The notes under the pieces were generated by a model. That model was given only the letters and a program-made list of their open reading frames with translations. It was not told the origin of the DNA and searched no databases. The position numbers and the translations under genes are program-made. Below, one piece after another: positions 22,427 through 22,473 of a DNA stretch of 64,000 nt. Source of the stretch: Escherichia phage WPEC5. The stretch lies in sequence record PV654397.1, one strand, 5' to 3'. Numbering within the stretch: the stretch's first letter is position 1; every line of letters starts with the position of its first letter.

Positions 22427-22473
22427 GACAATTCCTCGATTGTGGGGATGAGAAGTTCATCCCCTTGATAAAC

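Follow-up and report, generated by a model that had tools for sequence, protein, structure and literature searches.

Stem-loops close behind early promoters of an Asteriusvirus jumbo coliphage, one of them probably a collapsed tRNA-like leader

At two places in the DNA analysed here a stable stem-loop lies between a consensus promoter and a start codon, and the question raised by these loci is whether such stem-loops serve as structured 5' ends of early mRNAs or owe their place to something else. The window, by which we mean the whole analysed stretch of 64,000 nt, is 99.3% identical to Escherichia phage Ecwhy_1 around the hairpin loci and approximately 92% identical to phages phAPEC6, PBECO4, and 121Q. 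On the basis of this identity it is assigned to the Asteriusvirus jumbo coliphages of the PBECO4/121Q/phAPEC6 group; the genus comprises jumbo myoviruses with genomes of about 350 kb. From about 15 kb on, the window carries a dense minus-strand array of small ORFs without known function, and all promoter-like sites with at least 10/12 consensus matches between 15 and 35 kb are located on this coding strand. The small minus-strand genes around the hairpins are early genes; CBB, a related phage, has an early region of short ORFs of this very kind, recognisable by its RpoD-like promoters (PMC5259590).

PHROGs assigns the four ORFs next to the hairpins only to families without known function, the Pfam search gave no match above thresholds for the flanking proteins, and a PDB search with the 184-aa ORF downstream of the first hairpin returned only marginal matches to type III effector proteins (E about 0.1). 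DNA- or RNA-binding domains were not recognisable in any of these proteins by Pfam, PDB, or PHROGs, and the idea that they are RNA- or DNA-binding autoregulators was rejected. A literature search revealed neither transcription-start nor RNA-seq data for Asteriusvirus or RaK2, and no description of leader hairpins or promoter/stem-loop cassettes in Asteriusvirus. Both leader hairpins and such cassettes are elements of an already known kind; by this search, their occurrence in Asteriusvirus seems to be new.

The preliminary description had placed each hairpin between a promoter and a start codon. Sequence and folding confirm these positions, with the minus strand as the transcribed one (Table 1), and the promoters, which match the consensus at 12/12 and 11/12 positions, look like genuine σ70-type early promoters. 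Hairpin 1 has eight perfect pairs in a G/C-clamped stem of the GGGG…CCCC type and a 5-nt loop. It begins 9 nt after the -10 element, within a 76-nt intergenic gap and directly at the predicted transcription start: initiation at A22466, 7-8 nt after the -10 element, would leave 2-3 unpaired nucleotides in front of the stem. The stop codon of the upstream gene (at 22503) touches the -35 element, and the sequence upstream is AT-rich. On the 3' side the hairpin has no U-tract; ACAAUCGA stands directly after the stem, the tail recorded in the scan for promoter-hairpin pairs is ACAAUCGAGG, and the order of elements is ACAAUC, the Shine-Dalgarno sequence GAGGA, and the ATG at 22426 that opens the 184-aa ORF (PHROG 22186, unknown function). 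The stem-loop alone folds with a dG of -12.7 and the 49-nt leader with -15.4 kcal/mol (z -2.4), a value reached by 5 of 200 shuffled sequences. Sequestration of the Shine-Dalgarno sequence was considered, as a small second hairpin folds around it, and was rejected because this hairpin is not a conserved feature in relatives. ARAGORN calls for hairpin 1 appear at the 60% threshold only and are spurious.

Table 1. Minus-strand promoters, stem-loops, and translation signals at the two loci, and copies of the class-B promoter repeat (coordinates of the window)
Feature	Position	Strand	Basis or remark
Predicted early σ70-type promoter of hairpin 1, TTGACA-16-TATAAT	22474..22501	-	12/12 consensus; class-B repeat copy
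Hairpin 1, RNA GGGGAUGA-ACUUC-UCAUCCCC	22444..22464	-	sequence, fold, 12/12 relatives
Shine-Dalgarno GAGGA (22437-22433) and ATG (22426-22424)	22424..22437	-	184-aa ORF, function unknown
Predicted early promoter of hairpin 2, TTGACA-17-TATTAT	37301..37329	-	11/12 consensus; conserved as far as RaK2
Hairpin 2, stem GGGAAUGCAGUGA/UCACUGCGUUCCC	37236..37287	-	fold, conservation, RaK2 pseudo-tRNA homology
Hairpin 2, loop core and start of 3' arm, ACAGCAUAAUCGUACUCGUC	37247..37266	-	19/20 match to RaK2 pseudo-tRNA
GCCC then UUUUAAA, directly 3' of hairpin 2	37225..37235	-	sequence
Shine-Dalgarno GAGGA (37218-37214) and ATG (37206-37204)	37204..37218	-	102-aa ORF, function unknown
Class-B promoter repeat copies (family D10/D11)	22470-22502, 33336-33368, 37646-37678, 56734-56766

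Hairpin 2 is built differently, with a stem of 13 bp, one of them U·G, and a 26-nt loop in which only weak internal pairing is found. It lies 13 nt after the -10 element and begins 6-8 nt after the predicted start. The -10 element reads TATTAT here and TATAAT in most relatives, and the 97-aa ORF upstream ends with its stop codon (37326) within the -35 element; the 102-aa ORF downstream belongs to PHROG 26720. The dG of the stem-loop alone is -19.8, and the 91-nt leader folds with -26.8 kcal/mol (z -4.8), which none of 200 shuffled sequences equalled. Its tail is GCCCUUUUAA, with the U-run offset by 4 nt from the stem, and this segment could be, judged from its letters, either a relic of a tRNA 3' end (RCC) followed by a U-run or the tail of a weak terminator. 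A search of the window for an antisense target of the loop found none. A terminator acting on the plus strand was also rejected, since no plus-strand genes converge here and the substitutions to G·U described below suit the minus strand only.

Stability on its own does not set both hairpins apart. The minus strand of the window contains about 27 distinct perfect-stem hairpins with dG ≤ -12, and 20 dinucleotide shuffles of the window gave 2-13 of them (mean about 7, register variants counted in). Hairpin 1 is thus unexceptional by energy and is distinguished by its position and conservation, while hairpin 2 exceeds all other hairpins of the window in stability, at a level reached in 0/20 window shuffles. 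Three promoters with at least 11/12 consensus matches (22501, 37329, and 50892) have a hairpin with dG ≤ -12 that starts no more than 13 nt past the -10 element; judged roughly by the shuffle density, about 0.1 such coincidences would be expected. The majority of the strong promoters in the window lack such a leader hairpin, among them those at 33367, 37677, 42641, 44007, 56765, and 58615. The two hairpins bear no relation to one another, and the idea of a repeated element was dropped, as each is present in a single copy within the window. The most striking side observation concerns the palindrome CAGTACTG, which is in at least 35-fold excess throughout these genomes; it is unrelated to the hairpins.

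Comparison with other Asteriusvirus genomes, which are 80-100% identical, revealed that both stems are kept. Hairpin 1 is found in all 12 genomes examined, and its closing G-C pair is G·U in most relatives. In phage Turkey5, where the region is 80% identical, the loop ACUUC is changed to GUUGU (4/5 bases altered), and the stem still pairs, with one U-A pair turned into U·G; in ph0011 two terminal pairs are lost, leaving 6 bp. Over the alignment, 96% of cells are paired for hairpin 1, compared with 38-69% when the partners are slid (35-69% in the slid-partner controls for both hairpins together). In nine Asteriusviruses, the 5' arm and the entire 26-nt loop of hairpin 2 are invariant. The only changes are three C→U substitutions in the 3' arm, all of them facing a G, which yield G·U pairs and preserve pairing only in minus-strand RNA; the stem is 100% paired in the six distinct sequences. 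The sequence just 3' of this stem is more variable: the GCCC of the window is replaced in relatives by ACCC, AACC, or GUAC, the RCC is lost in ph0011, and UE-S1 has AACC with an interrupted U-run. Neither hairpin shows double compensatory changes within the genus, where variation is too low for the shuffle controls to be informative; the wobble-compatible changes, the one kind of support found there, are consistent with selection on the stems at the RNA level.

Beyond the genus, a search of IMG/VR for divergent homologues returned only 121Q and RaK2. A metagenome scan gave 21 matches, of which three are relevant (one with the RaK2-type element described below and two identical to the window) and the others are due to chance. 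The RaK2 orthologue of the hairpin-1 gene is preceded by a different inverted repeat, GCGGTAC-N9-GTACCGC, which overlaps the -10 element. Such a repeat is unable to fold in the transcript of its own promoter and could fold only in read-through RNA; thus, it favours a read-through or DNA-level role and argues against hairpin 1 working at the 5' end exclusively.

The origin of hairpin 2 is suggested by the same phage. Klebsiella phage RaK2 (Alcyoneusvirus) has a homologous upstream gene and promoter, with about 80% nucleotide identity up to window position 37289, and at the syntenic position after this promoter an element annotated as the pseudogene 'tRNA-OTHER' (RaK2_gt006). At the 80% threshold, ARAGORN folds the RaK2 element into a cloverleaf of 88 nt that possesses a D arm and a perfect T arm and whose acceptor stem has 7 bp. 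Local alignment of the window leader with this element has a z-score of 10.5, unmatched in 2000 shuffles. The two share the core ACAGCATAAT(C/G)GTACTCGTC, identical at 19 of 20 positions, the apex CAGCAUAA of the hairpin-2 loop is common to both, and remnants of the T-loop region align as TGCGTTCC in the window and TGCATTCC in RaK2. On this alignment, hairpin 2 is homologous to the RaK2 pseudo-tRNA.

Related elements differ in how much of the tRNA character they retain. Phages K64-1, KP13-7, Muenster, and RCIP0023 have a different, 64-nt form with the canonical T-loop GTTCGATTCC, and a T-run follows the element in the RaK2 and K64-1 forms. About 1 kb downstream in RaK2, a second class-B promoter precedes an element identical in acceptor stem and trailer, which passes the Rfam tRNA gathering score (30.4 vs 29 bits, E 1.4e-4); downstream of it lies a homologue of the window's 102-aa gene (66% identical). 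The closing stems of the RaK2, K64-1, and second-site forms show double compensatory differences, AGACAAGAT/ATCTTGTCT, AGACAAGAA/TTCTTGTCT, and AGACAAGTA/TTACTTGTCT: the interiors of these elements decay while the pairs of the closing stem are swapped in a compensatory manner. The window element itself gives no tRNA match to Rfam RF00005 even at E ≤ 10 and nothing in ARAGORN even at the 60% threshold; it has no cloverleaf, D arm, or T arm and T-loop, only one long helix. At gathering thresholds, the Rfam search of the whole window detected only tRNAs located elsewhere, and permissive Rfam searches around hairpin 2 and the RaK2 element gave nothing meaningful. One of the tRNA genes in the window, a genuine tRNA-Ser, begins 7 nt after the -10 element of the promoter at 55584. 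On balance, hairpin 2 is quite probably a tRNA-like leader that has collapsed, with its closing helix retained or rebuilt. The segment ACAGCAUAAUCGUACUCGUC bears a resemblance, no more than suggestive, to the anticodon arm of the phage tRNA-Met(CAU) (z 4.7, 6/5000 shuffles), and several unrelated genomic 79-mers score equally; tRNA-Met is therefore not claimed as the specific ancestor.

The promoters of these loci are themselves repeated. The class-B promoter repeat (…TTGACA…CAGTACTGTATAATGTTTAT) is present in four copies, and a second family, class A, in ten. The class-A unit consists of a UUCG-loop terminator hairpin that contains the -35 element (GGGTTGACTTCGGTCAGCCC), a T-run, TATAAT, and a conserved leader. 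In the recognisable terminators of the phage the U-run is adjacent in every case; hairpin 1 is absent from the list given by the terminator scan of positions 15000-34999, a range beyond which hairpin 2 falls. Two kinds of rearrangement map to the promoters: (i) phage A4 has a different gene upstream, its homology to the window sets in shortly before the -35 element of the hairpin-1 promoter, and promoter, hairpin 1, and downstream gene remain together; (ii) Ecwhy_1 and ph0011 lack the 97-aa gene 37326-37619, and the -35 element and spacer of the promoter at 37677 are fused, inside the -10 element, to the hairpin-2 leader. Judged from these alignments, the repeated promoters are recombination breakpoints between related phages. 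In the recombinant relatives, the hairpins move with the promoter or the downstream gene and not with the upstream gene.

The arrangement is reminiscent of the promoter-early stem-loop (PeSL) cassettes of the T4-type phages RB49 and phi1 (Arbiol et al. 2010, PMC2839356; Comeau et al. 2014, PMC4122927). In these cassettes a promoter of σ70 consensus, preceded by an AT-rich region, is combined with a stem-loop, frequently of the polyG…polyC type; five subclasses are distinguished by position, one of them 'downstream of the -10', and the cassettes have been linked to modular shuffling, with a terminator or attenuator role proposed for the stem-loop (PMC2839356). By our comparison the window loci resemble cassettes of the PeSL type in several respects: (i) an early promoter of σ70 consensus, preceded by AT-rich sequence in which the stop codon of the gene before it lies, (ii) a stable adjacent stem-loop of variable position, here 9 and 13 nt after the -10 element, (iii) a Shine-Dalgarno sequence and ATG at the 3' end in a setting of small ORFans, and (iv) breakpoints of gene indels or replacements within the cassette (Ecwhy_1, ph0011, and A4). 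They differ in that the host of the cassettes is a RaK2-like jumbo phage, and the likeness described here is one of architecture. Moreover, only the promoter part is repeated in the window, whereas each hairpin is single-copy; hairpin 1 lacks a U-tract, which makes a terminator role doubtful, and hairpin 2 appears to be tRNA-derived.

The reading that we prefer, at a probability of roughly 45%, is that both hairpins are 5'-proximal structural RNA elements of early mRNAs. It builds on the positions, stability, conservation, pairing-preserving substitutions, breakpoints, and RaK2 homology described above; the transcription start sites, predicted from the spacing to the -10 elements, and the effects on RNA stability, processing, and termination are inferred. 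Host σ70 RNA polymerase would transcribe early mRNAs from recombination-prone, repeated promoter cassettes, and both sense-strand hairpins would form at the very start of these mRNAs. By pairing the 5' end, hairpin 1 would hinder RppH and the 5'-end-dependent action of RNase E on its own transcript and leave the Shine-Dalgarno sequence free; in transcripts that read through from upstream, it may present a barrier to exonucleases or to transcription. In the case of hairpin 2, a promoter-proximal tRNA-like gene, still cloverleaf-like in RaK2, would have collapsed, and the closing helix that was kept would provide a stable 5'-proximal structure for the downstream mRNA.

The two hairpins differ in how well they suit protection of the 5' end. 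According to Emory and Belasco, the tolerated distance for 5'-terminal protection is reportedly about 4 unpaired nucleotides or fewer. With a predicted single-stranded leader of 6-8 nt, hairpin 2 is probably too far from the end for classical protection of this kind. The role of transcript stabiliser offered in the preliminary description is plausible for hairpin 1, which would begin about 2-3 nt after the predicted start, and hairpin 1 is probably a 5'-terminal protector; its freely varying loop fits a purely structural role. In E. coli, secondary structure at the 5' end stabilises mRNAs because RppH and RNase E depend on an end that is single-stranded (PMC3997798), and the 2-3 unpaired nucleotides predicted in front of hairpin 1 suit this kind of protection. 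A more far-reaching version, which we regard as improbable, would make the tRNA-derived leader and the repeated σ70 promoter a mobile early-expression module of Asteriusvirus and Alcyoneusvirus, in which selection would act on the closing helix and not on tRNA function. As an exapted tRNA relic, the module might then serve early mRNAs as a signal for both RNase P-type processing and 5' protection, or its conserved apex CAGCAUAA, similar to an anticodon arm, might lure away a tRNA-directed enzyme or an anticodon nuclease of the host.

The stem-loops could instead act mainly on transcription arriving from upstream, as insulators of the PeSL type that attenuate or terminate read-through or block 3' exonucleases and so define and stabilise the 3' end of the upstream mRNA. 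Their place after the -10 element would then reflect a lack of space, the stop codons of the genes upstream (22503 and 37326) touching the -35 elements and leaving no other room. We consider this rather doubtful as the main function. It agrees with the range of positions among PeSL stem-loops, one of which was shown to terminate strongly (PMC2839356), with the ten window copies of a terminator hairpin overlapping the -35 element, with the RaK2 repeat over the -10 element at the hairpin-1 locus, foldable only in read-through RNA, and with the T-runs that follow hairpin 2 and its RaK2 and K64-1 forms. On the other hand, ACAAUCGA in place of a U-tract makes hairpin 1 unlike the recognisable terminators of this phage, a U-run 4 nt off and a 26-nt loop make hairpin 2 a poor intrinsic terminator, and in recombinants the hairpins do not go with the upstream gene. 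The attenuator suggested in the preliminary description is unlikely in the case of hairpin 1; hairpin 2, where GCCC precedes UUUU, is a possible though weak candidate. Hairpin 2 alone might also be a processing or small-RNA unit, with an RNase P cut at G37287, an RNase E cut in the AU-rich trailer, or both, or with transcription from the promoter at 37329 stopping in part at the UUUU stretch to give an RNA of about 70 nt. The homology to tRNA-like elements speaks for such a unit, as do the length of the stem (13 bp, near the 12 bp of a stacked acceptor and T stem, with G(+1) first), the GCCC, ACCC, or AACC 3' of it in five of six sequence variants, the U-rich trailer after all forms, and a loop invariant in the genus with the apex shared by RaK2; speculatively, the helix with G(+1) and a 3' RCC resembles the hairpin substrates of RNase P. 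This possibility is nevertheless unlikely: cloverleaf, T-loop, and tRNA score are lacking in the window element, ph0011 has lost the RCC, the AACC of UE-S1 is joined to a broken U-run, and nothing of this explanation applies to hairpin 1.

That neither stem-loop has a present function, hairpin 2 being a tRNA pseudogene in decay and the inverted repeat of hairpin 1 a product of chance or hitch-hiking that is kept because these phages are close kin, would fit the 80-100% identity without double compensatory changes in the genus, the several hairpins per 64 kb that reach the stability of hairpin 1 by chance, and the majority of promoters that do without one. It is made improbable by the Turkey5 stem, which pairs next to a loop diverged at 4/5 positions, by the perfect 13-bp helix that decay of a cloverleaf is not expected to yield, by the 0/20 window shuffles that reach the stability of hairpin 2, and by the compensatory swaps in the RaK2, K64-1, and second-site closing stems amid interior decay. 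RNase III normally needs about two helical turns, or some 20 bp, of double-stranded RNA. Stems of 8 and 13 bp fall far below this, and processing by RNase III, which the preliminary description had also proposed, is unlikely even though the location downstream of early promoters recalls the R sites of T7 early mRNAs. Hairpin 1 could likewise be viewed at the DNA level as an operator, a 21-bp palindrome centred near +12 for a dimeric repressor; it is a perfect 8-N5-8 palindrome with its centre about as in lacO1. However, the C→T changes opposite G and the A→G change opposite T break the DNA palindrome and keep the RNA pairing, the spacer of Turkey5 differs at four of five positions, no second copy of either half-site arrangement was found in the window, and the flanking proteins show no recognisable DNA- or RNA-binding domain. 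Taken together, RNase III sites and DNA operators appear highly improbable.

Interpreted as 5'-proximal structural RNA elements, the hairpins can be compared with several other known systems. The 5'-terminal stem-loops of ompA and papA stabilise E. coli mRNAs (Emory, Bouvet, and Belasco 1992, cited in PMC3997798). They share with the window loci a stable hairpin at or near the 5' end and a free Shine-Dalgarno sequence downstream, and the loop sequence is seemingly unimportant in both, as the hairpin-1 loop varies; the difference is that the 5' ends are predicted here and that hairpin 2 probably starts 6-8 nt in. The RaK2 tRNA-OTHER element is the closest counterpart of hairpin 2, syntenic after a homologous promoter and sharing the 19/20 core and the T-loop remnants, whereas the window element has a single long helix in place of the cloverleaf and no Rfam or ARAGORN match. 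The promoter-proximal tRNA-Ser of the window (promoter 55584) shows the same placement for a genuine phage tRNA gene, and in the tRNA region of T4 the phage tRNA genes are transcribed from early promoters. In phages λ and HK022, the nut (boxB) and put RNAs are stem-loops shortly downstream of early promoters. The likeness to these lies in early-promoter-proximal RNA stem-loops within a terminator-rich genome; however, recognition of boxB is loop-specific and the hairpin-1 loop is not conserved, and neither a boxA-like element nor the two-hairpin architecture of put is present here.

These results do not overturn current understanding; the tRNA-relic origin of one leader and the promoter-mediated indels are modest additions to it. 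A promoter-proximal tRNA gene can apparently decay into a simple leader hairpin with its closing helix kept, and promoter-mediated gene shuffling of the PeSL style appears to be active in RaK2-like jumbo phages, as it is in T4-type phages. If the hairpins modulate stability or read-through, they would help to explain how early genes are tuned in the co-directional arrays of a 350-kb phage, and they would also offer ready-made parts for expression design, each combining a strong promoter with a protective leader.

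Comparison of the related phages revealed loss and replacement of genes at the promoters of the early region. The 97-aa gene of the window is flanked by two copies of the class-B promoter, a repeated early σ70-type promoter; this gene is absent from Ecwhy_1 and ph0011, where the two promoters are exactly fused inside the -10 element. In phage A4, a different gene is found upstream of the promoter of hairpin 1 (the stem-loop preceding the 184-aa ORF), and the junction lies just upstream of the -35 element. The orthologous Alcyoneusvirus promoter, TTGACA-17-TACTAT, precedes the 184-aa gene orthologue in RaK2 and KP13-7 and has another inverted repeat, GCGGTAC-N9-GTACCGC, that overlaps the -10 element and position +1. 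Thus, both genera have a stem-loop at the 184-aa gene locus, at different positions.

Features of the window and of the comparison sequences from related phages (L-numbers)
Feature	Position	Strand	Details
Paralogous repeats	16700-19850		84-224-nt units, 6-12 copies, 60-96% identity
Composite cassettes	~16271, 18068, 19938, 20663, 24959, 25639, 27218, 28000, 31593, 40072	minus	10 copies
CAGTACTG, example sites	22480-22487, 37318-37325, 37656-37663, 56744-56751
Hairpin without U-tract	32939→32905	minus	14 bp, dG -16.7
Class-B promoter pair	37301-37677		flanks gene 37326-37619
Hairpin without U-tract	43423→43397	minus	11 bp, dG -17.7
Terminator-like hairpin with promoter	50835-50892	minus	dG -15.7; promoter at 50892
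Two overlapping long-loop hairpins without U-tract	51063→50991	minus	arms of one contain CAGTACTGAAU
tRNA-Ser(GCU) with promoter	55460-55584	minus	promoter 55584→55556
Weak tRNA match	57287-57365	minus	32.6 bits
Promoter fusion (Ecwhy_1, ph0011) and junction (A4)	L016 469-510; L017; L011 395-430
Alcyoneusvirus promoter, RaK2 and KP13-7	L025/L026 375-412
tRNA-like elements after class-B promoters, RaK2	L029 41-116 (RaK2 ~195541-195616); L019 759-849
G+C-rich stretch, RaK2	L029 120-330		~200 nt

At least two class-B promoters were observed in RaK2, each directly followed by a tRNA-like element, and both elements share the acceptor stem AGACAAG…CTTGTCT. One of them, in which the anticodon loop is enlarged, scores 30.4 bits, above the Rfam tRNA threshold, but ARAGORN with default settings does not call it; this element is followed by a G+C-rich stretch and then by an ORF homologous to the 102-aa gene of the window. 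In the window itself, a genuine tRNA-Ser(GCU) starts 7 nt past the promoter TGGACA-17-TATAAT and would therefore be made with almost no 5' leader. The weak tRNA match, found by Rfam only (threshold 29 bits) and with no tRNA call by ARAGORN at this site, may be another degenerate tRNA of the early region.

The composite cassette repeated in the window comprises (i) a terminator hairpin whose loop is UUCG, (ii) a T-run, (iii) the -10 element TATAAT, and (iv) the conserved leader tatttcatcaact, the -35 element being contained in the 5' arm and loop of the hairpin (GGGTTGACTTCGGTCAGCCC). Two of the ten copies, 25639 and 40072, lack a good -10 element. The cassette is a terminator/promoter unit similar to PeSL, the promoter-early stem-loop cassette of T4-type phages. 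A separate terminator-like hairpin, AAGGCUGAUUCA-UAA-UGAAUCGGCCUU followed by UUUUC, begins 1 nt past the -10 element of the promoter TTGACA-18-TATACT; this arrangement could attenuate transcription or yield a very short transcript; alternatively, the promoter-like sequence may be incidental to the terminator of the upstream gene. Further strong minus-strand hairpins have no U-tract. The diverged repeats, which are tandem or paralogous, overlap small minus-strand ORFs and represent the expansion of a paralogous gene family.

The palindromic 8-mer CAGTACTG occurs at 35 sites in the 64 kb of the window, compared with ~1 expected, and its count never exceeded 4 in dinucleotide shuffles; AGTACT was observed 164 times (~22 expected). 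Similar over-representation was found in phAPEC6 (24 sites in 32 kb) and RaK2 (7 in 10.6 kb), the comparison sequences being L001 and L052. In the class-B promoters CAGTACTG lies just ahead of the -10 element, and it is also present within ORFs in all three frames. CAGTACTG is a DNA-level motif.
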